A stretch of 27,623 nt of DNA from a virus. Lineage: Duplodnaviria; Caudoviricetes. The translations under genes and the position numbers were made by a program. Positions 61 to 24,615 of this stretch are shown here, piece by piece; the first letter of the stretch is position 1; each line of letters opens with the position of its first letter. The notes under the pieces were generated by a model. That model made no database searches. It was not told the origin of the DNA and saw nothing but the letters and a program-made list of their open reading frames with translations. Location of the stretch: IMG/VR virus record IMGVR_UViG_3300047403_000068, positions 1 to 27,623 of that record. The stretch is one strand, 5' to 3'.

Positions 61-89
61 TTGACACAAGACTTTGAAACTGGTACTAT
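61..89 (+). promoter_or_regulatory. sigma70-type promoter (TTGACA-N17-TACTAT, extended -10 TG)
   Basis: TTGACA 61-66, 17-nt spacer, TACTAT 84-89, TG at 81-82; SD GGAGAAGG 103-110 and ATG 113 follow. Confidence 0.85.
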
Positions 90-112
90 CTCTTACATAT
101 ACGGAGAAGGCA

Positions 113-967
113 ATGACCACCACAACACCTAGTACAACACAACAGCCCAAGCCACCATCCCTAGGGGGTATCCCCATCAAGTCCCTTGCTGATGAGGATC
201 GTACTCTCACCATGATCATATGGGGAAAGTCCTCCGCAGGGAAAACTGTCCTCGCAGCGACAATGCCCGGGAAGAAGCTATGGCTCAACTTCGATCCACG
301 CGGTACACAATCCATTCCTGTAACTCGCAGCGACGTTGTTGTAGCTGACTTCTCTGGACAAGACCCGAGTGTTGTCGAGAAGTTCAAGGCAGACGATCCA
401 ATGGATATGTCCCGTATCATCAAGGAACAAGAGATCAACAGCATCATCTTCGACAGCACTACAACGTTCTCGGAAATGTCTCTCACTCACGGCGTTGACA
501 AAGCACAGTCGTACAAACAATACGCAGATGCTACCATCGAAGTCCCCGGCTACGGTGGATACGGGCATCGCAAAGCATGGATGATGTTATGCATCATCAA
601 TCTTCTCCGTGTTGCTATCCGCACTAAGACACACATCTGCTTTGTCACACACGAGGACTCACCTGAGCGAGACGCGAAAGGGAACTTGCTTTACATCACC
701 ATGATGCTTGGTTCCGATCTTGCTGAGAAAGCCGGACTCCATATCTCTGAGATATGGCATCTAGAAGATACAGGCAGCGAGCGTCGCATTGCTGTGCGTA
801 ACTGCCGTGGATGGAAACCAATTCGCTCTCGTATGTTTGAAGCGGAAGGAAGCCGACTAGAGTTCACTTGGAAATACGATGCACAGAAGAACGAAGGCAT
901 GACCATTGCTAAGTTCTACGAGCAATGGAAAGCTAACAACTTCCGCAAGATACCCATTCCTGCATAG
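113..967 (+). CDS. Sak4-like / AAA_24 P-loop ATPase (putative single-strand annealing recombinase)
   Basis: Walker A WGKSSAGKT, Walker B IIFDSTT, FVTHE motif; directly upstream of an SSB-like gene; start moved from TTG 74 to ATG 113, which has an SD and lies downstream of the promoter. Confidence 0.75.
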   Translation: MTTTTPSTTQQPKPPSLGGIPIKSLADEDRTLTMIIWGKSSAGKTVLAATMPGKKLWLNFDPRGTQSIPVTRSDVVVADFSGQDPSVVEKFKADDPMDMSRIIKEQEINSIIFDSTTTFSEMSLTHGVDKAQSYKQYADATIEVPGYGGYGHRKAWMMLCIINLLRVAIRTKTHICFVTHEDSPERDAKGNLLYITMMLGSDLAEKAGLHISEIWHLEDTGSERRIAVRNCRGWKPIRSRMFEAEGSRLEFTWKYDAQKNEGMTIAKFYEQWKANNFRKIPIPA

Positions 968-1068
968 CACTGAACACCGAATACACAACGTGTATCTATT
1001 CACGTTGCGTCTGCGTGTAGTAGGCGACGCACCTAACTGCCTACACTTTGAGAAAGAGGAAAATTAAC

Positions 1069-1509
1069 ATGGCTGATACTGAGAACCAAGAACTGCCTTC
1101 TGTGATCGACTACGGTGAGGACATTGCGAATGCGAAGCCGCCTGTACCGCTGCCGAAAGGTAAGTACCGTGCGGAGATTCGCGATGCAAAGTCTGCACTG
1201 AGCCGGACCAGTGGGAACCTGTACGCGGATGTTACGTTCTTCATCGATGCGTCCAAGTATCCGGCTGACTTCACCGATGGTGATCCCGATGGCATTGCCA
1301 TTCACTATCGCATGGTCAGTCTGGAAAAGACTCCGCGTGCTCGTTGGTTGATGAAGCAGTTTGTACAGAAGATCGGTGCGCCTAGTGGTGCATCGGTCGA
1401 TCTCAACGATTGGATTGGTCGTGAAGCGATCATCAAGATCGATCACACCAAGGACCAAGCGGGATTGTTGCAGCCGGAAATCCGCGAGATCACTCCGGTT
1501 GGTGGCTGA
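1069..1509 (+). CDS. DUF669-like phage single-stranded DNA-binding protein
   Basis: PLPKGKYRAEIRDAK...SGN N-terminus and DLNDWIGREAIIKI motif typical of DUF669-type OB-fold SSBs; Sak4-SSB synteny; SD AGAGGA 1055-1060. Confidence 0.65.
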   Translation: MADTENQELPSVIDYGEDIANAKPPVPLPKGKYRAEIRDAKSALSRTSGNLYADVTFFIDASKYPADFTDGDPDGIAIHYRMVSLEKTPRARWLMKQFVQKIGAPSGASVDLNDWIGREAIIKIDHTKDQAGLLQPEIREITPVGG

Positions 1510-1872: not shown

Positions 1873-2133
1873 ATGAAACTTCCAAGGTCAATCAGCATTC
1901 CAATTCCGCATGATGTAGTCAGTGCAGATCGTGCATCGGAACTTGGCGATGCTAAGTCAGAATTTCTGCATATCCGTATCCATCCGAAGGAGAAGGAACT
2001 AATACATACGGTTGCAAAGGACGTTCTCAAAACGACACCAGCGATCTTTGTACGTTGGCTAACAATCCTTGCAGCTAGAGAAATCCAAGCAAAAGTCAAT
2101 CAGCTAAATGGAGTGTCCGCCAATGGAGAATGA
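1873..2133 (+). CDS. ribbon-helix-helix DNA-binding protein (DUF1778/MobC-like)
   Basis: KSEFLHIRIHPKEKELIHTVAK...TTPAIFVRWL fits the beta-alpha-alpha RHH pattern; SD AAGGAG 1861-1866 before ATG 1873. Confidence 0.6.
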   Translation: MKLPRSISIPIPHDVVSADRASELGDAKSEFLHIRIHPKEKELIHTVAKDVLKTTPAIFVRWLTILAAREIQAKVNQLNGVSANGE

Positions 2134-3454
2134 ACTAGAGGAAGATAACAATGGAACTAGTGAGGAATCTGTATACACGCCAGCGAACATCGAGCTTGAC
2201 CCACAACAGACAATCGCAGTTAACACTGCGCTCGATGTTACTAAACGAATCGTCGGTATTACTGGTCCTGCTGGTTCTGGAAAAACTACCATCCTGCGAC
2301 ATGTGTATTCGCAGCTTATTGCGGCAGGATATCGTGTCGCTTTGGCAGCCCCAACTGGAAAGGCAGCTAAGAGAATATCAGAAGCAACAGGCATCAAGGC
2401 CACTACAATGCACCGCTTGCTTGAGTTCTCTTATCCAGGAGAGCGTGATCCTAAGACTGGAAAGGTATATGGAACTTCTGAACCAAAGCGATGTAAGGAA
2501 AATCCACTAGAGTACGATGTTGTACTAGGCGATGAATACGCAATGGTCAACCGAGACTTGCATCGTTGCATTATCGATGCACTTCCTCCTGCTGGCCGTG
2601 TCGTTGCGTTCGGTGACTTAGCACAGCTACCGCCGATTGAGTCCTCTCCTGTGTACAGAGACATGCCTTCTCCATTCACGGAGATACTAGAGCGTTTCCC
2701 TAGTGTTCGACTGAATACCATCCATCGGCAGTCAAAGGGGAGTACGATTGTTGAAAACGCCAGCCGCATCCTCAAGGGTTTCCTTCCGCGTAGGACACCT
2801 GACTTTGATCTACGGATCACCGATGATCCAATTCCCGTTCTCACTGCGATTGTCCAAGCGTATCTCAAACAAGGCGTGGACTTTTCAAAGACGAACAACC
2901 AGATCATTGTGCCGATGAATATCTCTCGCGTTGGCTCTCATGCATTGAATGGACATATCCGAAATGTATTCGAGACAACAGAGACACAATGGATCGCGCT
3001 TCCCCGACACAGTTGGGATGAGAAGTATCCAATCTCCATCCGTGTTGGATCAAAGGTGATCTATGGGAAGAACGATTATCAGATCAACGTGTTCAATGGC
3101 GAGACTGGTATTGTCACAGAGATCACGGAGTACGGGGAAGTTGCAATCAATCTCGGGGATCGCACTGTTGTAATCCCTCCGCGCATCGAGTACACTATTC
3201 CAAACACTGACGGCGGCTGGAAGCGTGTGGTGTATGATCCACGAAAAGAAATCTACCTCGCGTATGTACTAACGACACACAAATCACAGGGAAGCGAGTA
3301 CGAACACGTGATCTATCTGATGAACAGATCAATGTATCGTATGCAAGTACGGTCAAATCTGTACACTGGCATCACTCGTGCTCGTTTCGGAGTGGCACTC
3401 GTAACTGACAGCCGTTCCCTTAGCAACGCAGTAACCAGAGAGAGGGTAGTGTAG
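2123..3454 (+). CDS. RecD2/Dda-like SF1B DNA helicase
   Basis: Motifs GPAGSGKTT, APTGKAA, DEYAMV, GDLAQLPPI, HRQ, FNGETG, AYVLTTHKSQGSEY, LYTGITRAR; GGAG 2110-2113 favours ATG 2123 over ATG 2108. Confidence 0.92.
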   Translation: MENELEEDNNGTSEESVYTPANIELDPQQTIAVNTALDVTKRIVGITGPAGSGKTTILRHVYSQLIAAGYRVALAAPTGKAAKRISEATGIKATTMHRLLEFSYPGERDPKTGKVYGTSEPKRCKENPLEYDVVLGDEYAMVNRDLHRCIIDALPPAGRVVAFGDLAQLPPIESSPVYRDMPSPFTEILERFPSVRLNTIHRQSKGSTIVENASRILKGFLPRRTPDFDLRITDDPIPVLTAIVQAYLKQGVDFSKTNNQIIVPMNISRVGSHALNGHIRNVFETTETQWIALPRHSWDEKYPISIRVGSKVIYGKNDYQINVFNGETGIVTEITEYGEVAINLGDRTVVIPPRIEYTIPNTDGGWKRVVYDPRKEIYLAYVLTTHKSQGSEYEHVIYLMNRSMYRMQVRSNLYTGITRARFGVALVTDSRSLSNAVTRERVV

Positions 3455-3456: not shown

Positions 3457-3522
3457 ATGCTTGATTGGTTGATCAATTTCATCGTCGATTTAGTAACACA
3501 ACCTGGAAGGAGAAAGCCATGA
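3457..3522 (+). CDS. putative 21-aa peptide MLDWLINFIVDLVTQPGRRKP
   Basis: Fills the helicase-kinase gap; GAGGG upstream; TGA overlaps the next ATG (ATGA). Confidence 0.45.
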   Translation: MLDWLINFIVDLVTQPGRRKP

Positions 3523-4220
3523 CTCGTGTTGTATTTATCACTGGTGCCCCACGATCAGGAAAGTCTACTGTATCGAAGCATCTTCTTTACTCTGCCGTTG
3601 GTAAAACGGGATGCACTTCCGGTATGGTTATCACAACCAGCGAAGCACTCAAACGTGCTGTGCATTCTCTCATTGGCATGTTCAATATCTCTCCTGATAC
3701 ATTCGAGACTCTGAAAGACTCACCACTAGACTCATTCAATGGGCTCACCCCTCGTCGTGCATACATCAAAGCATACGAGTTCGGTGCGTCTATCTTTGGT
3801 CCTGCATTTCTCGGAGACAGCATACTGCATAGAATGTCCTCTGCACCAAGTAAGTGTCTAATCATCACCGATCCGGGCCGCAGAGAAGAAGCAGCACGTG
3901 TTATCCACGAAGTCGGCGCGTATAACTGTATGCATATCCACATTGAAAGAGGCAACATGCATACGTTGAATACAGAAGGTGTGGCGTACACCATACCTGC
4001 TGATGGATTAGAGGACTCTCGCTTTCCGTTTCAACTCAATGCAGAAGGTGTACCTACGTATGTCCTCCGAAACAACTCCACCCTCGATCAACTCCATGCT
4101 CGTGCCGATAGCATCATCGACGAGTGGGTACAATACCTCTCAAGAGCTAATCCGCGATCTGGTCAAGCGAGCGCACTCGGCGCATCTTCAAGTGGACTGC
4201 CCACCACAGGGGAAGATTGA
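3519..4220 (+). CDS. deoxynucleoside monophosphate kinase-like P-loop protein
   Basis: ITGAPRSGKST P-loop, EALK, GLTPR, IITD..R.EE, C-terminal VLRNNSTLDQL; SD AAGGAG before ATG 3519. Confidence 0.7.
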   Translation: MTRVVFITGAPRSGKSTVSKHLLYSAVGKTGCTSGMVITTSEALKRAVHSLIGMFNISPDTFETLKDSPLDSFNGLTPRRAYIKAYEFGASIFGPAFLGDSILHRMSSAPSKCLIITDPGRREEAARVIHEVGAYNCMHIHIERGNMHTLNTEGVAYTIPADGLEDSRFPFQLNAEGVPTYVLRNNSTLDQLHARADSIIDEWVQYLSRANPRSGQASALGASSSGLPTTGED

Positions 4221-6588
4221 TGCGCGCATCGCTATCATTGCAGAAGCTCCTGGCGAAACTGAAGTCAAGCTCAAATCACCGCTTGTTGGCGGAAGCGGTA
4301 AACTTCTGTGGGACAAACTCAAACGTTTCGATATCGATCGAACTCAGTGTTGGGTTACGAACGTTATTAAGAGACAGCTTGTACAGAACAGATTTGCACC
4401 AAAGGCTCCTATTGCCAGTGCAGAGTATAACTACTGGTGCGAACTACTACGTTGGGAGCTTGGCCAACTCAAGAACTGTCAGTACGTGCTCATTCTCGGC
4501 GGCCCAGCACTTAACGCTGTTCGACATAGCGGTGAGAATAGCATCGATGATTACCGTGGATCGTGCGAGCGTTTGGATGACAACAGATGGTACACGTATA
4601 CGTACAATCCAGCGTTTGTTATCCGAGAGCCTAAGCTCGAAACGATCTTCATGCTCGATCTTGCCAAGTTCGATGGGCTGATGCGAGGGAAATATGTTGA
4701 GTACAAAACTGATGCGATCATCAATCCGTCGCCTCGTGAAGCGATCGACTGGTGCACTATGCTCATCGACAATGCAAAACAAAAGCCGGTTGCGTTCGAT
4801 ATCGAAACGATTGCTGGGGAAACTGCCTGCATTGGGCTTGGAAACGATGATCATCAAGCGATGTGCATCAACTTTCGCACACGGAGCGATCATAGGTTCT
4901 CACTATCCGAAGAAACGCAGGTACGTCTTGCCATCGGAAGGGTACTACAAAATCCAAACGTTAAACTTGTGGCGCAAAACGGCAACTTCGACTCGTATTG
5001 GCTATGGTACAAAGATCGCATTCGTGTCCGTCGCGTCTGGTTTGATACGTTGCTCGCTCATCACACGCTCTACCCACAGCTTCCCCATAATCTCGGGTTT
5101 ATCGTCTCGCAGTACACATGGCATCCGTACTATAAGAATGAGAAAGACGAATGGCGAGAGAAATCCGGTGGAGATATTGATGATTTTTGGCGATACAATG
5201 TTAAAGACGTCTGCCTTACGCTGCACTGCCACCGCCCGTTACTTAGGGAAATACAACGAGAGAACATGGAGCACCTTTATTTTCGTCACATCATGCGTCT
5301 TAACCCACACTTGGCGAGAATGACTGTTAATGGAGTACTCTGTGATGTTGACATGAAGGAGCATCTTAAGGTTGACCTTGCAGCAGAGTTAGAAAAACTA
5401 CGTGAGGATTTTTATATAGCAGTACAGACAGCAACAGGTGATCCAGAATATCGTCCTAATCCACTTTCGCACATACAAGTACGTGATCTATTGTTTAATC
5501 GTCTGCATCTATCTGGACGAGGACAGTCTACTGGTGACGATAATCGTGAAAGGATGATGAAACACCATGAGACAAATGATGCAGCGCGTCTCGTGCTCAC
5601 GAGCATGGATAAATTCAAGAAGGCAAAGAAGTTCTTTGGTACATATGTCGAAATGGAGCTTGATGAGGATAATCGCTTCCGGTGCGAGTACTCCCAGTAT
5701 TCCACTGTACGCGCTCCTGGCCGTCTTGGATCGAAAGCGGTTATGTGGGGTAACGGTGGTAACTTACAGAACCAGCCACAAGCAATGCAGAAGATGTTTA
5801 TTGCTGATGAAGGCTGGGGGTTTGTGTACTTTGATATGTCACAGATCGAAGCAAGACTCGTTGCGTGGATTGTTCCCATCCCTGCGTGGCAAGAGCAGTT
5901 TGAGTATGCAAGATTGAAAGGCGGGTACGACTGTCACCGTGCTTTGTGCGCGGAAATGTTCAAGATACCCTATGATCAAACTCCAGAGAAGGATTGGAAC
6001 GACGATGGAACTCCAACTCTACGATACATTGCGAAAAGATGCAGGCATGGTCTTAATTACAGAATGGGTCCGGACATTCTGGCGGTTCAAACTGGTCTAT
6101 CAATGTTGCAAGCAACCGATGCATACGTACGTTATCACAAAACGACACCTATTCTTAAATCTAGAAATGGATGGTGGCACAGAGTTGAGCAAAACGTACG
6201 GGATCATGTTCCTCTCCACTCGATATTTGGACGAAAGCTATTAGCCCGTGGCCGTATAGACGATGCAATTCTAGAATCTTGTATCGCATTTGAACCGCAG
6301 TCAACGGCAGGAGATCATGTTGCTAGTGTGATCTATAAATGCATGGAAGATGCCGAATGGCCACGCGATAAACATGGAGAACCGTGTGTGTCATTGAATA
6401 TCCATGATGCACTAATCACTCTCTGTCCACTTGAGTTGCGTTCCAAAGTGATAGAGATACAACGCAAGTACGCAGAGGCTCCACTCAAATTCCCAAGTGG
6501 TGATCTAATCATTCCTGCGGAGTTTGGGTTATCTCAACCTGACGAGAAAGGAATACATCGATGGTCAACGATCAAGAAAATAAAGTGA
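4060..6588 (+). CDS. polA: family A DNA polymerase with N-terminal UDG family 4-like domain and 3'-5' exonuclease
   Basis: UDG-like AEAPGETE..PLVGGSGKLL, VTNVIK, TYNPAF; ExoI FDIET, ExoII QNGNFD, ExoIII YNVKD; pol motifs A DMSQIEAR, B RYIAKRCRHGLNY, C IHDA; SD-like AAGGTG before ATG 4060 (start uncertain: 4039, 4060 or 4096). Confidence 0.93.
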   Translation: MSSETTPPSINSMLVPIASSTSGYNTSQELIRDLVKRAHSAHLQVDCPPQGKIDARIAIIAEAPGETEVKLKSPLVGGSGKLLWDKLKRFDIDRTQCWVTNVIKRQLVQNRFAPKAPIASAEYNYWCELLRWELGQLKNCQYVLILGGPALNAVRHSGENSIDDYRGSCERLDDNRWYTYTYNPAFVIREPKLETIFMLDLAKFDGLMRGKYVEYKTDAIINPSPREAIDWCTMLIDNAKQKPVAFDIETIAGETACIGLGNDDHQAMCINFRTRSDHRFSLSEETQVRLAIGRVLQNPNVKLVAQNGNFDSYWLWYKDRIRVRRVWFDTLLAHHTLYPQLPHNLGFIVSQYTWHPYYKNEKDEWREKSGGDIDDFWRYNVKDVCLTLHCHRPLLREIQRENMEHLYFRHIMRLNPHLARMTVNGVLCDVDMKEHLKVDLAAELEKLREDFYIAVQTATGDPEYRPNPLSHIQVRDLLFNRLHLSGRGQSTGDDNRERMMKHHETNDAARLVLTSMDKFKKAKKFFGTYVEMELDEDNRFRCEYSQYSTVRAPGRLGSKAVMWGNGGNLQNQPQAMQKMFIADEGWGFVYFDMSQIEARLVAWIVPIPAWQEQFEYARLKGGYDCHRALCAEMFKIPYDQTPEKDWNDDGTPTLRYIAKRCRHGLNYRMGPDILAVQTGLSMLQATDAYVRYHKTTPILKSRNGWWHRVEQNVRDHVPLHSIFGRKLLARGRIDDAILESCIAFEPQSTAGDHVASVIYKCMEDAEWPRDKHGEPCVSLNIHDALITLCPLELRSKVIEIQRKYAEAPLKFPSGDLIIPAEFGLSQPDEKGIHRWSTIKKIK

Positions 6589-6854
6589 TTTATTACTACA
6601 TTCGCGTACACTTTGCTGGACTTAGTGAAGATCAAGAAGAAACACAACTCATTGTGAAAACCAAAGAAGAAGCTGAAAACATACTGAGGCGATTTAATCA
6701 AGAGCTTATAGTGAATATAGTTAATCGCAGAGCAAACGGTGAACTTACATCTAGTAGTATGCTGTTTATGAATCACGTGCGTCAGGTGTATGTACAAGCT
6801 CTTTCTGCATCTGAACAGATTTGGAAATCGTTTCTGTTTTCTGAGGTTAAATGA
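6561..6854 (+). CDS. hypothetical protein (97 aa), AT-rich
   Basis: SD AAGGA before ATG 6561; overlaps the pol stop and the next start; alternative GTG 6585. Confidence 0.6.
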   Translation: MVNDQENKVIYYYIRVHFAGLSEDQEETQLIVKTKEEAENILRRFNQELIVNIVNRRANGELTSSSMLFMNHVRQVYVQALSASEQIWKSFLFSEVK

Positions 6855-8152
6855 TGATCAACTATACAACAATCGCTCCCCCTGGAACATTCATTCATTC
6901 CTACATGGAGCTATCATCAACACAGGAGACACCATATGCCTACGATTTCTTCTCTGGACTTTGGCTTATCTCTACTATTGTTGGTCGCCGCATCACAATT
7001 AATCGACCTCGTGCACCTGTGTACCTTAACCTTTACGCCATACTTGTTGCGGAGAGTGGTATTACTCGGAAGTCTACGAGCGTACGCCATGCTGTACATC
7101 TACTACGTTCTCTCCTTTCCGATAGATCAATAGAGGACAGCATTGCACTTGTTGAAACGAAACTCACCACCGGCAAACTAATGGATTGGCTCAATGTCCA
7201 AACAACAAAAGTCAATCACGCTCAAGCTGCACTCGCAATATCAGAACTCGCAAGTGTGTTGGGACGCGGTTCGAGTGTCCGTGACATGCCAGTTTTGCTT
7301 ACAGACCTCTACGACTGTCCTGAAACAAGACGCGGCGGAGGAAACCTTACAACTACGGTGGAATACCGCAAAGTGTACGTTACCTTCTTGTCCGCATCGA
7401 CGCCTAGCTGGCTCATCCGTGCAGTCAACCCAGACGTGATCGAAGGGGGCTTTACTTCACGTTGTCTACTAATCGTATCAGAGAAACCAAAGCGACAAAT
7501 TGCATGGCCAGAAGAAAGGAACGACAATGAACGAGAGAGAATTGCTAAGGACAAACTTGGTGAAATACTCGACAGCACACAAGAGAGAAGTTGCGTGCAT
7601 ATCGACGAAGGAGCACTTGCTATCTTTTCCAAGTGGTATGCCACAAGAAAACAAGGACGAGATATCTTTCGTGCTTCGTTTGCTGCACGCGAGGACAGCC
7701 ACGTTTTACGCATCGCAGGGTTATTGGCCATTAATGGTAACACCTGGACTATTTCTAGTCAGCACATCCGTACGGCTATCGCAATCGTGGATGATACGAA
7801 AGAAAAAGCAGCGGAGCTTTTATCTTTCGGAGCAGGAATCCTCCCGGACAGTTATCGAAATGCTGAAAGAATCAAATCAGCACTCATTGAAGCTGGTGCG
7901 GCGGGGGTAGGACAGTCTGCATTGTACACAAAAGTACGTACAAAGAACGTCAACGATATGCTTGACATTCTTCGCATCATGCATGAGTTGAACATGGTGC
8001 AACGATTCGATGTACCGACTATTGGCGGTGGTCCAACGAAAACACTCTGGCGTGGTACAAAGCTATTGAATGCGGACAATCTAAACGAGCTACTTCGTTC
8101 TCGAATCGATCCTGAAACTGTAGGAGGATTAGACAATGCCAATGCAAGTTGA
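6851..8152 (+). CDS. DUF3987/YfjI-family P-loop protein (putative replicative helicase), possible C-terminal winged helix
   Basis: NLYAILVAESGITRKSTS Walker A variant, AISEL Walker B, LLTDLYD, SASTPSW, GGFTSR arginine-finger region. Confidence 0.75.
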   Translation: MMINYTTIAPPGTFIHSYMELSSTQETPYAYDFFSGLWLISTIVGRRITINRPRAPVYLNLYAILVAESGITRKSTSVRHAVHLLRSLLSDRSIEDSIALVETKLTTGKLMDWLNVQTTKVNHAQAALAISELASVLGRGSSVRDMPVLLTDLYDCPETRRGGGNLTTTVEYRKVYVTFLSASTPSWLIRAVNPDVIEGGFTSRCLLIVSEKPKRQIAWPEERNDNERERIAKDKLGEILDSTQERSCVHIDEGALAIFSKWYATRKQGRDIFRASFAAREDSHVLRIAGLLAINGNTWTISSQHIRTAIAIVDDTKEKAAELLSFGAGILPDSYRNAERIKSALIEAGAAGVGQSALYTKVRTKNVNDMLDILRIMHELNMVQRFDVPTIGGGPTKTLWRGTKLLNADNLNELLRSRIDPETVGGLDNANAS

Positions 8153-9146: not shown

Positions 9147-12100
9147 CTACTTCTTGTACTTTGTAAGTACCTGTTCCAATTTCAAATCCGGTTGTCCAAT
9201 CGAATGTCCTGCGCCTAGTTCAAGCGATTGTAACAACTGCAACATGCGTCTCTGCTCGTTAAGTATACCATTCTCACCTAGTACAATGTTATCCCGTAGA
9301 CGCTCTCTATCATTCACATGCACAGTGCTACCTTCAATATCCCGCAACTGTGCTTGTAGCCCATTAATCCTCTGTTGAAAACCTTGTATCACCTTTTGTC
9401 TTGTTGGTTGTAGCATGTACTGTGCTATATACAACAACTCAGGTGACACTCCTTCTGTTCTATCAGCAGCCCCAAACGGAGTAGCTGCTCCTGATCGAAC
9501 AGACGAGAACTCTCCACCTGTTTTCTCTATAGGCACAATCTTCCGCATTTCTTCTATCGCATTCATCTTCTCTCGTATCAATGCAGCGGTAGCATTGCTC
9601 GTTGTGATACGTGTAGGCAATCCCCACAATCCAGTCATACGCAATTCACGTTGCTGCATTGGAACAGCCGCGCGTTCCACTCCCTTCTGCATTTGCTCAG
9701 ACAATGGCAAGCCTTCACGTGACGCTGCACTCCATCCACGTAGCGTATCTACAAACAACTGCGAACCTGTACCGACTAGCGCATCTAATGCAGCTACAGC
9801 CGATGCCGGAATCGGGTCGTTTTCCCTTGCCATTGGGCTCCCAGGCGTCGTTGGATCAACCCCTAGGGGAACCAGCCCACCCTGGCTCAGATCGTACCTG
9901 TAGCCCATTGCAGCAAGCCCAGCCCCCTGTATAGGACCGACCGGCACCCCTCGACCCACAGCACTCAAAGCGGCATGTCCCGCCCCGGTCCATATCTCAC
10001 GCCACTCAACCGGACCCATCAGGTTCAACGCATCACGCCAACCACGGCTGAGAGGATCATTGCTATCCCACAACTCTCCGCTCTTTGCACCAGACACAGC
10101 AAGTACACTTTCAATAACAGCACTCCACGCTGGTTGCAAATTCGGATCAATGTCGAATACAACAGGACCATTCTTACCAGGAAGCAATACACCACGCGCA
10201 CGTTGATCTGGTGTCCACCATTGCGTGTATTCTTCTCGAAACTCAGGATGTGTTAACAGTGTGATCATTGTAATACCAATGCCACTGCTTAACAGACCAC
10301 CAACAACAGCAGCAGCCCGCGTAGGATCGCGTTGAATAGCGTCATACGTGGACTTCAATGACTGCACACTTACATTCCAGAAGGGAACAGCACTTCGTAT
10401 TCCAGGTGCTGTACCTTTTCTATGTGGATCAAACACGAGAGCGTTTGCATCAGCAATAGCACGGTCCATCTGTGCGGTGTTCATACCAGAGCCGACATTC
10501 TGTGAAGCTACATGCAAGCGTACTGATCCTTGCAGTGCTTCATGTAGCCATCGAGCTTCATCATAGACCATCTTAGTCCACAACGAAAAGCCACCAAGCA
10601 CACTTGGATCAGACAACTCGTTAAACTGTCTGCCATATCGTCCGAGAATGCTATAGATGTTCTGATAGTTGAATACAGGAGTGAACGATCCGCCTACAGA
10701 CCCACCATGTTGAGTAAACTTCGCGACTGTACTATTCGCATATGCCTTCGCCATGTAATCAGCGATGCTCTGTGCAGCATTCGGACCAAATACAGCATCC
10801 AATGCACGAGCAGTACGCTGATTTGCCATCACAGAAGATGCAAGAGACTGTGAAAGCTGCGAAGTTACCTCCGCGTACGCAGCACGAGCAACTCCACTTG
10901 GGATAGACAATGCAGCATCAGCAAGATTGAACCGTGTTCCTTCTGCTTTTGTTAGCAATCCAAGTGTCAGATCATATTTCAAGCTCGCAAGTGTCTGTAA
11001 CGGCAAGCCCGTCAACGCAGTTGCTACAGCATCGTATCCAAACCCTGCGGTTAGTGTAGAAAACGATCGCCGCACTGTATCTAACACACGATACGCTTTC
11101 AACGGAGCAAATTCCAAGGCAACTCTAAGCACAGGATCAGTGACTTCCCAATATTCATGCTGTCCATTACGAGATATCATCAATGCATTATCAGTTGCGG
11201 CTACACCACGCTTGAATACATCTGGATACTGAGCAGACAACGTATCTACAACTGATCTACGCAGTGCATTTGTTTCAGATAGACGAATTGCCTGAGCAAC
11301 AGACACCATCATTGCAGTAGGAGCATCGACTAGTTGCTCCATTGGCAATGCAACGTTTGTACGCTGCATCAATTGCTGAATTGCAAACAATCCATCTGGC
11401 ATGTCTTGGTTCAATGCACGTTCAATGGACAAACCAAGTCCAGCAAAGCCTGTCTCTTTCTTTTGTGCCGCAATGTTCGGTACATACTCTGACTGAGCAA
11501 CAGAAAGGCGTGCAAATTCCTGTCGAGTGATCAATCCACGATCATAGACGTACGATAGAACAGATCGCATGATCTGATGATACCGTTCCATCATACCAGC
11601 AACAACAGGATCAGCCTTTGCACGGGCAACAAGCATCTGCGGGTGTGAGATCGGCATTGGATTACCAGCCGGATCAAGGAACTTCGTAGGTAGTCCATTC
11701 GCCCAGCGGTTCAAATCATCCGCAGCATGTAATCCATCGTTCAACAAACGCATCTGCTGCTCACTTAGCTTAGAAAACGCTCTAAGCCAAGTTGCAGGAG
11801 CCGTGCCAGATACAACAGTGCTATTCGGGAACACACCAGTTAGCATTGTATTCTGTGTTCTAGCAATCTGTGATCCAGCCGTGGCTGTACTGTCCAATGC
11901 AGCAAGTGTTTCCTTAGCTGCCGGTGTGTTAACATTCTTCAATGCACGTCGAATGGGCTCATCACGGTCAACAGCAGCAGAGAGTACGGCATCTGTTGTG
12001 CTGGTAATACGTGGCTTCGTTTCTGGAGCTAATCCAAGAACATTCATCATTCTCTGTCCACGTCCTCGTGATGCAAGAGCAATTCCTACAAGACCTGCTC

Positions 12101-13031
12101 CAGCAACAGACTGTAACAGATAATCATCGATGTGTGAATTAACGTCACCCCCGTTGCTGCCAGCGTCCAAAGCAACAACGGGGAGTGACGGCACTGACCG
12201 CTCAGGAGAAGGAGACTGAGCTATCTGTGCGGTAGACGGTGTTTGCTTTTCGTGTATTGCATCTGCAATAGCATTTGTTGCTTCTACCATTGCAGTTGGA
12301 ATAGCAATATTCGCTGCAAGAGGAAATACTGATGTTCCATTAACGTGTGTTCCAGGCGTCAAGAAGTCAACAATGTTCCCAAGTACCTTTCCTGCTTTGC
12401 TTGCTGCACGACTAACTGCACTTCCTGGCAATGGGATAACAGCACCACCTGCAAAGTCATTCAGGTTGTCAACGATGCTGTAATCTTCTTGCTTCTTTCC
12501 AACAAAATCAGCAATCTGAGCATTCGTTTTGTCAAGTTGTGTCTGCATGTATTCACTTCCAGGCAATCCAGTACGCGCGTACAGCCACGCAGGAAACTGT
12601 GTTGCGTGAATAATGCCACCACCAAACACTTTGAATGGATCAACCAAGTCTTTTATTGTCGGCGCTTTGATCAACTGCCCACTTGGCTCTGGCTGTTCTC
12701 CTGTCAAATCTGGTGGCGTCCAGTTCTTTCCAAGATCAATTGATTCACTATCTTCCTTTGCTGCTTTAACTACGTTAGTATCAACAGCAATAGAACCGTC
12801 ATGCATGATCCCTGCATCGGGAACATGCTCTATGGCATTTTCAACATCCTTCGGTTCACGAAGCACACCGACTACGTAAGTCTTGCCGTCAGTTGCATCA
12901 TCCGCGTAGATATCCCCGTACTCATTTCCAGACATACGGAAATTCGACAGCGAAGGAGTGTATTTCTTCTTTTCTGCTTCCGCTTCTTCTACGGAATCAT
13001 ACAACTTTGGCCCGATGTTAATCCGTTCCAT
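9147..13031 (-). CDS. large internal virion / DNA ejection protein with C-terminal LPD38-like region
   Basis: 1294 aa, last of the internal-protein block; FDPHRKG..IRSAVPFWNVSVQS..IQRDP + hydrophobic helix + EEYTQW resembles LPD38. Confidence 0.65.
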   Translation of the reverse strand: MERINIGPKLYDSVEEAEAEKKKYTPSLSNFRMSGNEYGDIYADDATDGKTYVVGVLREPKDVENAIEHVPDAGIMHDGSIAVDTNVVKAAKEDSESIDLGKNWTPPDLTGEQPEPSGQLIKAPTIKDLVDPFKVFGGGIIHATQFPAWLYARTGLPGSEYMQTQLDKTNAQIADFVGKKQEDYSIVDNLNDFAGGAVIPLPGSAVSRAASKAGKVLGNIVDFLTPGTHVNGTSVFPLAANIAIPTAMVEATNAIADAIHEKQTPSTAQIAQSPSPERSVPSLPVVALDAGSNGGDVNSHIDDYLLQSVAGAGLVGIALASRGRGQRMMNVLGLAPETKPRITSTTDAVLSAAVDRDEPIRRALKNVNTPAAKETLAALDSTATAGSQIARTQNTMLTGVFPNSTVVSGTAPATWLRAFSKLSEQQMRLLNDGLHAADDLNRWANGLPTKFLDPAGNPMPISHPQMLVARAKADPVVAGMMERYHQIMRSVLSYVYDRGLITRQEFARLSVAQSEYVPNIAAQKKETGFAGLGLSIERALNQDMPDGLFAIQQLMQRTNVALPMEQLVDAPTAMMVSVAQAIRLSETNALRRSVVDTLSAQYPDVFKRGVAATDNALMISRNGQHEYWEVTDPVLRVALEFAPLKAYRVLDTVRRSFSTLTAGFGYDAVATALTGLPLQTLASLKYDLTLGLLTKAEGTRFNLADAALSIPSGVARAAYAEVTSQLSQSLASSVMANQRTARALDAVFGPNAAQSIADYMAKAYANSTVAKFTQHGGSVGGSFTPVFNYQNIYSILGRYGRQFNELSDPSVLGGFSLWTKMVYDEARWLHEALQGSVRLHVASQNVGSGMNTAQMDRAIADANALVFDPHRKGTAPGIRSAVPFWNVSVQSLKSTYDAIQRDPTRAAAVVGGLLSSGIGITMITLLTHPEFREEYTQWWTPDQRARGVLLPGKNGPVVFDIDPNLQPAWSAVIESVLAVSGAKSGELWDSNDPLSRGWRDALNLMGPVEWREIWTGAGHAALSAVGRGVPVGPIQGAGLAAMGYRYDLSQGGLVPLGVDPTTPGSPMARENDPIPASAVAALDALVGTGSQLFVDTLRGWSAASREGLPLSEQMQKGVERAAVPMQQRELRMTGLWGLPTRITTSNATAALIREKMNAIEEMRKIVPIEKTGGEFSSVRSGAATPFGAADRTEGVSPELLYIAQYMLQPTRQKVIQGFQQRINGLQAQLRDIEGSTVHVNDRERLRDNIVLGENGILNEQRRMLQLLQSLELGAGHSIGQPDLKLEQVLTKYKK

Positions 13032-13040
13032 TGGGCATCT

Positions 13041-14081
13041 CTATTTATTTGCGCCGAGTTGATTGAAGAACATGCGATTTGTCTTTGGGAAGATAGTTGC
13101 ATTGTACACAGTAGTATCTCCACGTTTCTCTGACTGCGTGACAATATACTGCCGTGTCAATGAACCATCACTCTGCTTGATCCATCGGCTGCCTTCAACG
13201 GGTGCAATTGTCCTAGCACCAGGATGCTGTCCTGCCATCCAATTCATAGCAGCCTTGTCGCTGTCATTCGCTGCACCGATGAATTGTGGAGGGGTACTAG
13301 CTGGAGCACGTGCTTGTGTCTGCGTCTGCGTCTGCGTCTGCTGCTGCCTCTGTGAACTCTGTTGCACTGCCGGGCCAGTATCCTCCGCTGTATCCCTGCG
13401 ATTTGCAGGTGAAACATTTACACCACTTGTATCAATTTGATCAGGGATCAACTTTGCGCCAAATATCCTATGCATATTCGCCGCAGCTTCGCGCAAACGA
13501 TTCGGATCAGTTGACGTGACTTCTATACCAGCGTTGTCAACGTTAGTCCCTGTGACCTTATACTTTGGTGCCCCTTCATCCCGCTGTCTCTGAATACTGA
13601 GCGGAGTCGTGCGCCCAAATACACTACGAGCAATATCATTAATAGAACCTGCACCCGCAGACGGAGCATACCCACCCTCCAATGCTGAATGAACCCCTGC
13701 ACCAAACTTCTGTAATGTTCCAGCAGCAAGATCATCTTTGTGTCTAGCCGCAGCCGCATCGAACACTCCTTTCAATTCTGGAACGTATGTAGATAGTGCT
13801 TCTGCCGCATCAGGATGTGCTTGAGAAAACTCAAACACTTTCTTCATCAATTCCTTGTTTGCCTCGTTCTGCATTGCAGCAGTATCATATGCACTTGCGC
13901 GATCATTATACGCATTCAGTGCATCAAGATACTGTTGCCGCCGTCGATCTGCTCGTTCAGATGCCAGCGTGGAAAATAGATACCGCCCACGAGGAGCATA
14001 CGCCTGTCCACGTGCAAACTGTGTCTCTGCACTGTCCGCATCAAACAATGCTTGCTGCGGTTCTTTCATTGCTGTAGCCAT
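13041..14081 (-). CDS. putative internal virion / ejection protein (346 aa)
   Basis: Position between the pilot-like and large ejection proteins; Ala/Gln-rich helical N-half, Q/T linker. Confidence 0.6.
   Translation of the reverse strand: MATAMKEPQQALFDADSAETQFARGQAYAPRGRYLFSTLASERADRRRQQYLDALNAYNDRASAYDTAAMQNEANKELMKKVFEFSQAHPDAAEALSTYVPELKGVFDAAAARHKDDLAAGTLQKFGAGVHSALEGGYAPSAGAGSINDIARSVFGRTTPLSIQRQRDEGAPKYKVTGTNVDNAGIEVTSTDPNRLREAAANMHRIFGAKLIPDQIDTSGVNVSPANRRDTAEDTGPAVQQSSQRQQQTQTQTQTQARAPASTPPQFIGAANDSDKAAMNWMAGQHPGARTIAPVEGSRWIKQSDGSLTRQYIVTQSEKRGDTTVYNATIFPKTNRMFFNQLGANK
13315..13347. repeat. hexamer microsatellite (TGCGTC)3 plus variant copy and CTG run, encoding QQQTQTQTQTQ
   Basis: tgtgtc tgcgtc tgcgtc tgcgtc tgctgctgc. 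Confidence 0.7.
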
Positions 14082-14093
14082 TGCATTAACCCC

Positions 14094-14846
14094 TTAGAAG
14101 AAGCCAATGATGCCATCAATAAGACCACCGAGAACATCACCAAAGCCTGAGCCTGACTGACCACTTGCCTGTGCAGATGCAGCTTTGATTTGATTAGCTC
14201 CACCGTACGCAGAGTTAATCCCTTGATACTGGCCAGCAAGGCTAGTATTCTTGAGATTATTCTCGAAGCCAAGCGAAGCAGTATCACCACCAAGACGGGC
14301 ACGTTGCAGAGCACTACGCAAACCACCAGCAGTCTGCAAGTCTTGATTAGCAGAATTTCGCCAATCAAGATTGATCTTATTCCCAGTAGTCAATGCGTTA
14401 ATACGAGCATCACGTTCCGCCTGTGCAGTGTCCTTTGCTCGTCTCTGTGCCAATGCTGCAAGCGTGCTCCCTGCATCTGTACCAGTACGCAATGCTTGCA
14501 TAGTAACAGCATTAGTAATCGGATCATAAGCATCTGACATACTAGAACGTGCTGTCTGCATGAAATCAGCAAGCAACGCGTTTGGATCAATCTTATCTGG
14601 TCCATTAAACCTGCTAACAGCAGTATTATACACAGAATCCGTCTCTGGAAGGATCGAGTTCATTATCGACTCGAACTTCGTTAGATACGGATTATCTTTC
14701 AGGAACGTTTCATTTGCTTTCGTAACTTCGCCAGTCTTTTTCAACTGTCCACTAATGTCTGCCGAGTTACCACTGCCACTTGGACTGATACCAAAGATAT
14801 CATCCAATACGTCAAAGATACCGCCAATAACGCCGCCTGTACTCAT
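14094..14846 (-). CDS. putative pilot / DNA-transfer (ejection) protein (250 aa)
   Basis: Gly-rich amphipathic termini (GGVIGGIFDVLDDIFG; GFGDVLGGLIDGIIGFF) around a helical core, as in small podovirus ejection proteins; TAATG coupling to the upstream gene. Confidence 0.6.
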   Translation of the reverse strand: MSTGGVIGGIFDVLDDIFGISPSGSGNSADISGQLKKTGEVTKANETFLKDNPYLTKFESIMNSILPETDSVYNTAVSRFNGPDKIDPNALLADFMQTARSSMSDAYDPITNAVTMQALRTGTDAGSTLAALAQRRAKDTAQAERDARINALTTGNKINLDWRNSANQDLQTAGGLRSALQRARLGGDTASLGFENNLKNTSLAGQYQGINSAYGGANQIKAASAQASGQSGSGFGDVLGGLIDGIIGFF

Positions 14847-17014
14847 TAGAACACTCCCTTACTACCAATGCCACGGCGCTGATAGCTCTTTGGATCAGTC
14901 ACGTAGCGTGATTGAGATTGTCTCGCAAGTGAATCAAACAATGGAGACGTGCCAAATCTATTCCCACCAGGAGTATCTAGTGCAGAATACAATGCACTTG
15001 ATGGGGAGAACACAGGACCATTGTCTTTGATTGCTGTACGATACAAGTCACGAAACCTATTCGCGTCTGAACGATACAGATCAGCTACAGGTTTGAATGC
15101 ATTGTTGAAATCAATGGGCTTTGTGTCATACTTACCTGCCAGAACATCACTTGTCAAGGCATTTCTTGACGTGTTGACAGCGCCGAATAGCTGATTAGCA
15201 AGATCACTTCCCATTTGATTCAACTTGCCAAGACTATTGTGCTGTTGATTGTTCAACTCAGATACAGCAGCCTGATACGCAGGGCCATCAAGCATCCCAC
15301 GCTGTTGTGCTCGATTTAGATACTGGAACGCAGCATTTTGTTCACCACCAATAACGTCATTCAATACGTCATTGAAGTTGAACGTACTGCCTTCTGGCCC
15401 AAGAATATCACTGATTGTGTTCAAGTACGAATTACGTACTCCTTGAACATCTGTAACAGGAGGAGGCAACGGCGGTGTATGTGTTCCACCACCCGCAGCA
15501 GGAGTGCCAGTATTAGTATTGCCTGTGCCACTAGTCCCACCAACAACACTACTATTGCCACTGCCAGCATTATACCCAGTATCTCCATTCCATCCTCCAT
15601 CCGCATTGTACGTATTTCCGTTGCCAGGAAAACCACCAGGAAAACCACCAGGAACATCAGCGTATATAGTTCCGTCTGGATTGCCGATTGTAGAACTAAT
15701 GGCATCATCCAACGGTGTACGACTAGCAGATGTATTATCCCGCGCTTCTGCTCTAGCAGCTTCTTGTGGTGTGTTTGGATAGCTCACTTGTCCGTATGTA
15801 GGTTGATCCCCAGGGAACGTAAATCCATTTGTCGGAGCGGGTCCGGTGTATCCAAGTCCACGCTCTGCAAATGGATCAGTTAACCCAAACAACACAGACT
15901 TGGAATCTCCACTGCTATTGAACAGGTTTTCCACCATCTTTGGAACAAGACCATCAGTGAGATCGCGTCCAAGAATGATGTTGTCGATTGCTTTTGCAAC
16001 TTGACCAGCGCCAGGGAAGTTAAACGGCGTCATACCAAGGAATGAAGAAAACGCTTGCAGCGGTCCATTAGCAGTAATGAAATTCCCAGGGAACGAACTC
16101 GCTAAGATGTTCCCTACAATTGCTTGAAATGCAGGACCGAATGCAAACTGATCTGCTTCGGGAATTAATGGTACGTGTGGTACTTGTTCAACACGCCCAA
16201 TACCACCGAACTCACCATTCCTACCTGCAATCGCAAAGCCGTCAAGTAGATAAGGATTCTTTGCATCGTCTGCCGTTAATGTTTTTCCAGTGTCTTTCCA
16301 ATTGCCTGCATTGTCTACTACCCAAACATGGCCATCAGGATCAATGCGTACACCATCTGGTACAGCACCAAACGCAGCAGCAACATTTCCTTTATCTACA
16401 TCAGGAGCAACAACGGGCTTGCCATTCCCACCAGACTCTATCGGTAGAAATTCATCTTCTGAGATCGTATCATCTTCTGGCGGTGTATCTTCTGTTGCAG
16501 GTGGAGGAATATCATCTAGAAACGGACCATATGCTTCTTCGGGACCAAATACTTCATCAGGTCCGTACACTTCGTTGCTATCAGGATTTGCGACAGGACC
16601 GTATGATTCTTCCGGTCCATACACTTCTTCTGGTCCATATACCTCATTGCTGCCGATATTCTCAGATGGCCCATACACTTCACCGCCACTAGCATCAGCA
16701 ACAGAGCTATCTGCAGTACTAGAATCACTGCCAGGATCGCTGCTAGCACTGCTACTATCCCCAGTTCCATCATTGCTAGTATCATCAGCGTACATTGGAA
16801 CGCCAGTAATGGGATTAACCGCGTCGTTATTCCCACCAATCTGATACTTAGCAAACTCTGGTCCAAGCGCCTCCATTAACGCTTCCATCAAGCGCGGATT
16901 CTGCTTGCTACGAGGAACAACAATCTCTCCAGGCGTCAAATGCCCAATCATAGTATCACCGTCGATACCATCACGAGCAATCTTCTGGATCAGTGCACTA
17001 CGATTAATGGGCAT
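14846..17014 (-). CDS. putative internal virion protein (722 aa) with conserved N-terminal module and acidic EVYGP repeats
   Basis: GDTMIGHLTPGEIVVP...NPITGVPMY N-terminus, low-complexity centre, helical C-terminus; SD AGGAG. Confidence 0.65.
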   Translation of the reverse strand: MPINRSALIQKIARDGIDGDTMIGHLTPGEIVVPRSKQNPRLMEALMEALGPEFAKYQIGGNNDAVNPITGVPMYADDTSNDGTGDSSSASSDPGSDSSTADSSVADASGGEVYGPSENIGSNEVYGPEEVYGPEESYGPVANPDSNEVYGPDEVFGPEEAYGPFLDDIPPPATEDTPPEDDTISEDEFLPIESGGNGKPVVAPDVDKGNVAAAFGAVPDGVRIDPDGHVWVVDNAGNWKDTGKTLTADDAKNPYLLDGFAIAGRNGEFGGIGRVEQVPHVPLIPEADQFAFGPAFQAIVGNILASSFPGNFITANGPLQAFSSFLGMTPFNFPGAGQVAKAIDNIILGRDLTDGLVPKMVENLFNSSGDSKSVLFGLTDPFAERGLGYTGPAPTNGFTFPGDQPTYGQVSYPNTPQEAARAEARDNTSASRTPLDDAISSTIGNPDGTIYADVPGGFPGGFPGNGNTYNADGGWNGDTGYNAGSGNSSVVGGTSGTGNTNTGTPAAGGGTHTPPLPPPVTDVQGVRNSYLNTISDILGPEGSTFNFNDVLNDVIGGEQNAAFQYLNRAQQRGMLDGPAYQAAVSELNNQQHNSLGKLNQMGSDLANQLFGAVNTSRNALTSDVLAGKYDTKPIDFNNAFKPVADLYRSDANRFRDLYRTAIKDNGPVFSPSSALYSALDTPGGNRFGTSPLFDSLARQSQSRYVTDPKSYQRRGIGSKGVF
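15624..15654. repeat. 12-bp tandem repeat CCAGGAAAACCA x2.6 (PGGFPGGFPG)
   Basis: Copies at 15624-15635, 15636-15647 and a partial copy at 15648-15654. Confidence 0.7.
16523..16681 (-). repeat. seven E[VSA][YF]GP coding repeats
   Basis: Residues 112-164 of the 722-aa ORF; spacing of 6 or 12 aa. Confidence 0.85.
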
Positions 17015-17016
17015 GT

Positions 17017-17313
17017 TTATCTCCTGTTGTCCTGTAAGGACTGTCGATCGCGTATGATCGTTTTCACGTCAGCAGCCACAGCAGACATTTGCACACGAAG
17101 ATCATTGAGAGTGTCTGATATTGTTCTGTTTTTGCCTTCAATCTCTCGCATTGCTGCTTCATGGCGAACGTCTGTATCATGTAACGTCTGTATGTCTTTT
17201 TGTAGTGCACCCCACTGAGTGATTACGCTTGTTAATGCAACAGCAAGAGTTAATGCAATTGCAAGCCATTGAACAAGTCCTGTCGTAACCACTGGGTTCT
17301 GTCGTCTTTTCAT
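17017..17313 (-). CDS. membrane-anchored coiled-coil protein (98 aa; XhlA-like or i-spanin-like topology)
   Basis: Basic N-terminus, TM LVQWLAIALTLAVALTSVI, heptad-rich tail; ATG 17313 overlaps the upstream TGA (ATGA). Confidence 0.65.
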   Translation of the reverse strand: MKRRQNPVVTTGLVQWLAIALTLAVALTSVITQWGALQKDIQTLHDTDVRHEAAMREIEGKNRTISDTLNDLRVQMSAVAADVKTIIRDRQSLQDNRR

Positions 17314-17579
17314 AAAGTTCCCCGCCGTGTTGTGCCAATTCCTGACGCAATTCCACTTCGTATAATACAAGACTCTCCGTTGTATGTGGCTAATAGTGTC
17401 CATGAACCTGTACTAATATTAACCCACATTTCTACTAGAGTACCATCTTGCACAATACCCCACGTTTCTAAAGACTCCTGATGCTGCGACAACAAACGAT
17501 AGACCATTTCTGGCCGCTTCATACACACTAACGGGTGTTGCAGCTGTATGAACGTTAGAAGCGCAACAGTAGATAACAC
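17310..17579 (-). CDS. small exported-type hypothetical protein with Cys pair
   Basis: C..R.....L....E....G......VEMW....TGSWTLL....GESCII.SG pattern, recalled from alphaproteobacterial and phage hypothetical proteins; hydrophobic N-terminus. Confidence 0.65.
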   Translation of the reverse strand: MLSTVALLTFIQLQHPLVCMKRPEMVYRLLSQHQESLETWGIVQDGTLVEMWVNISTGSWTLLATYNGESCIIRSGIASGIGTTRRGTL

Positions 17580-17584
17580 GCGCG

Positions 17585-18004
17585 TTACTCATTTTGTAGA
17601 AGGATCAGTAACTCATCTGCTCTCTGCTTTCCAAGTACACCTTCCAAAACAGTCCATGCGCTTTGAAACGTAGGAGAAGCAAACGGAATCATCTTCTCTC
17701 CACGAGAGCGCAACAATTCAAGCCACAAACCTGTTGACGGTGATTTGGTAGCAACATCCTGTATTAGTGCATAGTCACCAACAGAGAAAAGACTAACAAG
17801 ATCACGCGCTTTGAATCCCTTGCGTGGTTGTGGTTGTATTGGAGGTGGCGTTATGTAAGCAGCACCATCCCAAAAGTCTCCAGGCTGTGCTGTATCACTC
17901 ACAGCGCCAATATACAATCCACTCGACGGCTGCCAATCACTCCCTGGACGCATCTCTGTGACAGTGACAACAACATTGTTAACATCTAGCAATGGTACAC
18001 GCAT
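17585..18004 (-). CDS. putative tail fibre assembly / chaperone protein
   Basis: Follows the fibre gene; AQPGDFWDGAAYITPPP motif typical of such proteins; SD GGGGAG before ATG 18004. Confidence 0.6.
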   Translation of the reverse strand: MRVPLLDVNNVVVTVTEMRPGSDWQPSSGLYIGAVSDTAQPGDFWDGAAYITPPPIQPQPRKGFKARDLVSLFSVGDYALIQDVATKSPSTGLWLELLRSRGEKMIPFASPTFQSAWTVLEGVLGKQRADELLILLQNE

Positions 18005-18006
18005 CG

Positions 18007-20211: not shown

Positions 20212-20234
20212 GTTACGGCTCCTATCTCTATCGC

Positions 20235-20630
20235 TTACGAAGCATCCAGTTCTGCGCCACTAACTTGCATAAACATTGAAGCAAAGTCAGCAGTTCCAAT
20301 GGTGTACGTAACTGTATCACCGGCTTTCAAGAAATATTCCTTCGGGCCAGGAGCAACAGTCGTAGTATCTGATCCACCAGTGTCCGCAGTCGGCAAACCA
20401 GTGCCCATCATGCGTGTACTATCAGTACGGACACGATTGCCCGCAGTAAGCGCCCCTGAATTAAGCACTTCCATACTAGCAACGTTAACCTTGAGTGTCG
20501 AGTTTACACCAGCAACACCAGTGTACATGATCTTTACACGTGCTGTCTTTCCTGTAGGACAGGTATAGACAGTCGTTGTTCCAATCGTGAATACTGCGGC
20601 CGTTGCAAGTGCGCCAAGAATGTCAGCCAT
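20235..20630 (-). CDS. small beta-rich virion / tail protein (131 aa)
   Basis: TTVYTCPTGKTARV...YFLKAGDTV...VSGAELD pattern; SD AAGGAG. Confidence 0.65.
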   Translation of the reverse strand: MADILGALATAAVFTIGTTTVYTCPTGKTARVKIMYTGVAGVNSTLKVNVASMEVLNSGALTAGNRVRTDSTRMMGTGLPTADTGGSDTTTVAPGPKEYFLKAGDTVTYTIGTADFASMFMQVSGAELDAS

Positions 20631-20644
20631 GTCGATTTGCTCCT

Positions 20645-20821
20645 TTACTTGTTCAAGAGTGAAGTTGCAAGATCAAATGCAGCTTGATACGGCATTCTCG
20701 TCTTGCGAATCAAAGACGTGATCTCAGACTTGATCGTAGCAAAGTTTGCACGAAACTCTGCTTTGTCTGCTGCTACGCCATCAGCAGGAATAGATGCATC
20801 TACTTGTGAAGTAGTAGCCAT
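20645..20821 (-). CDS. 58-aa protein resembling a tail-fibre N-terminal anchor (absent from ORF track)
   Basis: MATTSQVDASIPADGVAADKAEFRANFATIKSEITSLIRKTRMPYQAAFDLATSLLNK; SD GGAAGGT; fills the gap between its neighbours. Confidence 0.75.
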   Translation of the reverse strand: MATTSQVDASIPADGVAADKAEFRANFATIKSEITSLIRKTRMPYQAAFDLATSLLNK

Positions 20822-20823
20822 GT

Positions 20824-23310: not shown

Positions 23311-23346
23311 ACTTGTCTCCTGGTGCTAGATACAAACTACACGTTG

Positions 23347-24012: not shown

Positions 24013-24018
24013 TGGCAA

Positions 24019-24525: not shown

Positions 24526-24555
24526 GTCACCTTCTCTCCTTCTCTAAATAGGATA

Positions 24556-24603
24556 TGTGGCGCACTGCTATCGGGAGGGAGGGGGAGACAACAGTGCGCC
24601 ACA
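24556..24603 (-). promoter_or_regulatory. 12-bp perfect stem-loop downstream of MCP (attenuator, processing or stability element)
   Basis: TGTGGCGCACTG 24556-24567 / CAGTGCGCCACA 24592-24603, 24-nt loop, no clear U-tract. Confidence 0.6.
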
Positions 24604-24615
24604 CAAGACTGGCTA

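Follow-up and report, generated by a model that had tools for sequence, protein, structure and literature searches.

Residue 762 of DNA polymerase I (Pol I) is the textbook example of a switch that sets dideoxy and sugar selectivity. It also serves as a marker by which phage polymerases are assigned, according to lifestyle, to a Phe, Tyr, or Leu group. The polymerase encoded by a 27,623-nt stretch of phage DNA (hereafter the window, i.e., the whole stretch that was analysed) has His at this position. A sequence-only reading had proposed this residue as a possible sign of a replication module adapted to a non-standard nucleotide; the question is whether His762 marks modified DNA or another state of an enzyme that copies ordinary DNA. 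The window comes from a podovirus-like phage, in which plus-strand replication genes face lysis and structural genes. Most of the structural genes (9147-27621) lack a Pfam or PHROG match, and the capsid protein is ~25% like those of the Myxococcus Mx8/Mx9, Bradyrhizobium, and Brucella podoviruses.

Active-site signature of the polymerase

The polymerase gene contains the following features (window coordinates):

4039..6588, +, gene for a family A polymerase with UDG-like and 3'-5' exonuclease domains, 849 aa in the longest ORF (Pfam PF03167, PF01612, PF00476)
4201..4635, +, family 4 UDG-like domain with AEAPGxxE and TN kept, KCRP Cys lost, and motif B His replaced by Asn at 4606-4608 (Pfam, alignment)
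4774..5253, +, 3'-5' exonuclease domain retaining intact DIE, NxxFD, and YNxxD motifs (Pfam, homologue alignment)
5716..5733, +, PGRLGS (TGR motif), Arg668 equivalent kept (phmmer, homologue alignment)
5827..5868, +, motif A, equivalents of catalytic Asp705 and steric-gate Glu710 kept (sequence alignment)
6022..6069, +, motif B (helix O), equivalents of R754, K758, and Y766 kept; Arg759 at 6037-6039
6046..6048, +, His at the Pol I 762 position (phmmer alignment, homologues, contigs)
6055..6057, +, Asn765, which accompanies His762 (120/120 in the best 120 of 884 homologues; 129/135 in the distant His762 set)
6286..6288, +, Ala in place of Asn845 in motif 6 (120/120 near homologues; Ala, Ser, or Gly in 129/135; Asn in Taq)
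6400..6411, +, motif C (IHDA), in which the catalytic HD is retained (translation, homologue alignment)

The CAT codon at 6046-6048 translates to His. In a gap-free phmmer alignment of motif B (RYIAKRCRHGLNYRMG, the translation of 6022-6069) and Taq AKTINFGVLY, His faces Phe; we take Taq F667 to be the equivalent of E. coli F762. The codon was identical in contigs of two other studies (X2 5674-6600, X3 5595-6571; zero differing letters), and these contigs together with conservation among homologues rule out a sequencing error as the source of His. Alignment confirmed the family A hallmarks (motif A Asp, motif B Arg/Lys/Tyr, motif C His-Asp), and the catalytic set is intact, i.e., D705, E710, R754, K758, Y766, H881-D882, and the exonuclease motifs.

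The AlphaFold model (pLDDT 92.3, pTM 0.88) has a Klenow fold with a 3'-5' exonuclease, and its top Foldseek match is Bst Pol I (E 7.5e-27); helix O ends just before His (DSSP; 3-10 turns not displayed). The enzyme thus shares its fold, exonuclease motifs, D705, E710, R754, K758, Y766, and HD with E. coli Pol I Klenow and the Taq and Bst large fragments. In contrast, it has His762, Asn765, and Ala845, its UDG-like N-terminal domain replaces the 5' nuclease, and identity is only ~18%. The longest ORF places 67 residues ahead of the UDG motif, compared to 30-44 in most homologues; the true start is probably near 4060-4099, overlapping the end of the upstream kinase gene. The tail encoding the kinase C-terminus overlaps the polymerase start by ~120-160 bases (4039-4220), and the overlap is shorter in locus L033.

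We searched for homologues and obtained 884 proteins, counting residues in the best 120. All 120 carried His762, Asn765, and Arg759, with Ala replacing Asn845, whereas Arg761, Arg767, and HDA occurred in 116/120, 118/120, and 113/120, respectively. For a distant set, representatives clustered at 50% identity were searched with a profile, and the best 150 were taken. Position 762 was His in 135, another residue in six (three Tyr, one each of Phe, Asn, and Leu), and unaligned in nine. His762 is therefore kept in 96% (135/141 scorable) of proteins less than 50% identical, while residues 759-761 vary freely. Among the 135 His762 representatives, Asn765 was found in 129 and Ala, Ser, or Gly at position 845 in 129; Glu710, Lys758, and Tyr766 were kept in 132, 132, and 133, respectively, and Arg761 (35), Arg767 (45), and Ala883 (43) were minority states. 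Since Asn765 and the altered position 845 are near-universal and R761, R767, and HDA are not, the clade signature is His762 plus Asn765 plus loss of Asn845. Asn765 is also present in four of the six non-His representatives, so its coupling to His762 is not strict.

These results uphold the placement of His at 762 and shift the weight among its companions. Asn765 and the loss of Asn845, both of which accompany His762, were absent from the sequence-only reading, which had singled out R761, R767, motif C HDA, and PGRLGS. All of the latter are present in the window. However, the two arginines are subclade traits rather than special marks (35/135 and 45/135), and HDA is not distinctive, since HDA or HDS also occurs in the Phe762 enzymes of SP-10, P744, and MaVan. 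The Pro of PGR is subclade-wide (120/120), and the Gly of RLGS is private to the window's enzyme, with Ser in 120/120. Nine positions kept in at least 112 of the best 120 of 884 homologues differ here, including Ser555 and Gly564 (5698-5733 and elsewhere in 4039-6588), and the window's polymerase sits on a longer terminal branch than its neighbours. Several homologues (P0122, P0126, P0132, P0134, P0139, and others) reach 1,050-1,230 aa with the profile interrupted near 545 or 640, which suggests inteins or similar insertions beside motifs TGR and B.

Viral loci gave the same picture. His was found in 28/28 readable loci of the 30 detected by patterns outside motif B; the larger tally of 111/111 is circular for L031-L112, which were found by motif B patterns, and only the 28/28 is used here. 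Seven cultured phages also carry His762: Pseudomonas PaP2 and PaMx41 (of the Fredfastierviridae, which also include 119X), Polaromonas Tiera, Aeromonas P5, Caulobacter Kuura, Vibrio VS-ABTNL-3, and Microcystis Mel-JY34. Their polymerases share His762-G/A-x-Asn765-Tyr with the window's enzyme, a residue other than Asn at 845 where read, and similar replication genes; they differ in overall sequence (~23-27% identity), in having a UDG domain that is eroded (PaP2 group) or keeps the motif B His, and in lacking R761. The annotated PaMx41 polymerase (L184 7250-9689, KU884563.1) has 713 aa and stops before motif C, which lies in another frame; its close relatives encode full-length proteins, which makes an error in the record likely. 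The polymerase is split into two ORFs in Kuura (L172 14923-18327), VS-ABTNL-3 (L171 15568-18702), and ctLwi270 (L173 1727-4364), with other ORFs inserted between the halves in Kuura and VS-ABTNL-3.

We built a midpoint-rooted tree of 33 rows from hand-picked polymerase domains, with N4 and SPO1 left out. The 24 His762 rows fell on one side of a branch (support 82/83, 84% of bootstrap trees). This branch is not strongly supported, and the tree is compatible with a single origin of His762 without proving it. The nearest non-His row, ctLwi270 (L173 3138-4364), has Tyr762 with Arg759 and Arg761.

It could be argued that His762 is an ancient near-neutral substitution fixed by compensatory changes, with His filling the aromatic slot and conferring no distinct property. 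Retention in 135/141 proteins less than 50% identical, beside freely varying residues 759-761, argues against such neutrality, and we consider it unlikely.

Predicted role of His762 and the replication genes

One study describes the ring at 762 as placing the ribose for the Glu710 gate, and the hydroxyl of Tyr as bonded to the beta-phosphate (bioRxiv 10.64898/2026.05.20.726624). In another, the F762A change let Klenow take NTPs and 2'-modified sugars 12- to 90-fold better (PMC13369328). Because His is aromatic and able to form hydrogen bonds, it could provide a sugar platform and possibly a Tyr-like triphosphate contact. The imidazole ring would stack on the deoxyribose so that the sugar is presented to the gate formed by Glu710, and one of its nitrogens may hydrogen-bond the beta-phosphate or the 3'-OH, as T7 Tyr526 does; Asn765 would either orient His762 or take over the role of the lost Asn845. 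We therefore favor, with a probability of roughly 0.68, a family A polymerase with clade-wide His762, Asn765, and lost Asn845 that likely copies ordinary A/C/G/T DNA, with His predicted to replace Phe/Tyr under the incoming sugar. On the comparisons made here, His762 is best read as one more naturally occurring state of residue 762, the fourth, in a polymerase that replicates ordinary DNA.

The genes around the polymerase comprise:

74..967, +, Sak4-like ssDNA annealing ATPase (phrog_124)
1048..1509, +, DUF669 protein, presumably an ssDNA-binding protein (weak PF05037 match, below cut-off)
2108..3454, +, RecD2/Dda-like SF1B helicase (PHROG match)
3519..4220, +, dNMP kinase, optional in the group (phrog_139; 35/104 loci)
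6851..8152, +, DUF3987 P-loop protein, labelled primase or helicase in PHROG, optional (Pfam, PHROG; 10/18 genomes)

We compared these genes with those of 36 related virus records, 23 of which are at least 90% complete. Within 18 near-complete genomes, 1,773 ORFs (including those of the window) were clustered into 358 representatives, of which 354 were scanned against Pfam; four already identified were omitted, and an ORF that was shorter than 85 aa or lay on the unlikely strand was considered only if three genomes shared it. No DnaG or AEP primase was matched among the 354 representatives of the 18 genomes. DUF3987 is cut down to pieces of 60-96 aa in several loci (e.g., L065, L071, L101). 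A conserved 151-aa early protein (17/18 genomes) was given no family name by the atlas search. In L057 and L059, the gene next after the polymerase encodes a tyrosine integrase (4501-5553); in five loci, a DNA methyltransferase directly follows the polymerase. Acb2/Tad1-like genes (in L050 and L096) and genes for PEP-CTERM proteins (in L099 and L107) were also seen nearby.

If the His762/Asn765/Ala845 pocket relaxed sugar selection, the enzyme might use rNTPs or start its own chains in place of a phage primase, and ~44-kb phages would then replicate without a primase of their own. The widened sugar tolerance of F762A Klenow is in line with this idea, as are the unmatched DnaG and AEP families and the presence of DUF3987 in just 10/18 genomes. 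However, the steric-gate Glu (132/135) and Tyr766 (133/135) are kept, His is still an aromatic ring, and the missing primase can be explained by a host primase or by recombination priming, given that Sak4, exonuclease, and helicase are core genes. Relaxed sugar selection is therefore quite unlikely.

The modified-base question

The sequence-only reading raised the hypothesis of an active site suited to a nucleotide such as dU or a modified pyrimidine, backed by the dNMP kinase and a degenerate UDG domain. The degeneracy of this domain was borne out by alignment to TM0511. AEAPGETE and TNV align such that the GE(A/G)PG motif with its following Glu and the Asn of TN are kept, and the Phe of PFVG is Leu. 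Two further features of active family 4 enzymes are missing, with HP replaced by NP (motif B His) and KCRP by KRQ (iron-sulfur Cys). Motif B Asn is present in 114 of the best 120 of 884 homologues. In the distant representatives drawn from the best 150, motif B His is instead kept in 101/109, and in the PaP2 group the domain has eroded to a remnant while His762 is retained. His762 thus occurs with intact-looking, altered, or eroded UDG domains and is independent of their state. In this subclade, the domain probably binds DNA or uracil without being catalytic, and it varies independently of His762.

The kinase proved optional. It was found in 35 of the 104 loci that include the helicase, and a ~190-aa protein without identified family occupies its slot in 14 others; the count was made from clusters, since a phrog_139 tally of 25/36 includes P-loop cross-hits from helicases. 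MazG, the sole nucleotide-related match among the 354 ORF representatives and a possible counterpart of the dTTP-removing pyrophosphatase of dU phages, occurs in 13 loci and 5/18 genomes, and another pyrophosphatase in eight loci.

We then looked for the pathway genes. A scan of relatives for dCMP deaminase, thymidylate-synthase-like, ThyX, and PurZ genes came back empty: PF00303, PF02511, and PF00383 matched in 0/36 related genomes, and PF00709 (PurZ) exceeded its cut-off in 0/36. For this phage itself, the analysis covered the window; ~15 kb of its genome, for which a contig of 42,283 bases may be the source, lie beyond. A weak PF00709 match in G031 was dismissed (15.4 bits vs. a cut-off of 27), and a PF22769 match in one record belongs to a gene with a stronger dUTPase match and all five dUTPase motifs. 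Positive-control families were matched in 5 to 14 of 14 genomes. Overall, six family searches of the 36 genomes and Pfam scans of the 354 ORF representatives recovered no modified-base cassette; most of the relatives' proteins lack a Pfam match, so unrecognised enzymes remain conceivable.

Known systems differ from the window group in these respects. SPO1/SP-10-like hmU enzymes and P744/ctfzr933/MaVan-like enzymes share the UDG fusion and HDS/HDA motif C, the latter in three of SP-10, P744, ctfzr933, and MaVan. However, they keep Phe762 and Asn845, with Phe762 in 4/4 of those named, beside genes for dUMP hydroxymethylase, thymidylate synthase, or dCMP deaminase that are absent in the window group. 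The hmU-phage gene set (dUMP hydroxymethylase, dCMP deaminase) was found in 0/36 relatives; nor was the cytosine-nucleotide deaminase gene of dU phages (Naomviridae type) found in the 36, which hold one dUTPase. The N4-like UDG-PolA enzymes of cluster 17, as described in PMC10201439, are also UDG-exonuclease-polymerase proteins of 800-900 aa with altered UDG catalytic residues and no known DNA modification. They have Phe at B3, compared to His in the window group with its ~44-kb podovirus-like genomes; N4 lies outside our tree. DpoZ 2-aminoadenine polymerases likewise have non-canonical residues in motifs B, 6, and C, which alone did not account for base choice even there (PMC8599892). In contrast to DpoZ, the window's enzyme lacks the Tyr766-to-Phe change and scores 18.8 bits against NF038380 (cut-off 500), and PurZ is absent over cut-off from the relatives.

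Six-base palindromes that contain T fall short of expectation in the window (O/E 0.58), with 9/35 nearly absent vs. 3/1,213 other words, and likewise in all 18 relatives (0.38-0.77). Four of five controls with modified T or its genes gave 0.80-0.96, and the dU phage DSS3_VP1 gave 0.65. This depletion argues against a bulky modification and only weakly against dU; since DSS3_VP1 also avoids T palindromes, the test does not exclude dU. GTAC is nearly absent from G018, G025, and G035 (1, 2, and 0 sites vs. 134-173 expected), pointing to hosts with a GTAC-cutting system. As for two cultured His762 phages, Kuura DNA was cut by BamHI into correct fragments (PMC9959647), with two BamHI sites in 38 kb of its sequence, and the mutations of PaMx41 escapers fell in a Type I R-M site that contains T (bioRxiv 10.1101/2022.03.30.486325). 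Both phages thus have restriction-sensitive DNA, although their polymerases are distant from that of the window (about 23-27% identity).

In favor of a dU or modified-pyrimidine adaptation stand the motif B Asn of the near homologues, the kinase next to the polymerase, MazG and the other pyrophosphatase, the many unannotated ORFs, and the invariance of Arg759 among the best 120 of 884 homologues, at a position that we presume faces the major groove. Against these stand the missing pathway genes and lone dUTPase, the patchy kinase, His762 alongside an intact motif B His or an eroded domain, Phe762 in hmU-type phages, and the restriction-sensitive DNA. Moreover, dU DNA resists a common library method (PMC8323127), yet 276 relatives are present in one viral collection, and residue 762 acts on the sugar and beta-phosphate in the studies cited above (bioRxiv 10.64898/2026.05.20.726624; PMC13369328). 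His762 is therefore probably not a sign of modified DNA, dU is unlikely, and an active site tuned to such bases with the aid of the kinase and UDG domain is very improbable. What survives of that proposal is that the non-canonical site marks a group without description in the literature searched.

His762 among phage polymerases

Earlier classifications leave no place for such a group. Nasko et al. (2018) distinguished three 762 types (PMC6302109), and the virome survey of Keown et al. (2022) retained only F, L, or Y at 762 (PMC9069017), a filter by which the His762 clade would be dropped. The window's polymerase, having His, falls outside the Phe, Tyr, and Leu groups of both. Czernecki et al. 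(2023) described UDG-PolA fusions with Phe, Tyr, and Leu as B3 states, and their main text contains no His group, PaP2, or 119X (PMC10201439). We found no description of His at 762 in the literature searched, and the His in polymerases of cultured members went unremarked in those papers; most subscription papers and bioRxiv supplements lay beyond reach, so that absence from print is not certain. This large polymerase group marked by His762 is thus apparently undescribed.

A fourth, ionisable 762 state across a broad clade means that surveys filtered for F, Y, or L miss a whole phage group. The clade is also a natural source of an enzyme whose behaviour toward ddNTPs, rNTPs, or pH may be new, and the cultured members (the PaP2/PaMx group, Kuura, and Tiera) make His762 directly testable.
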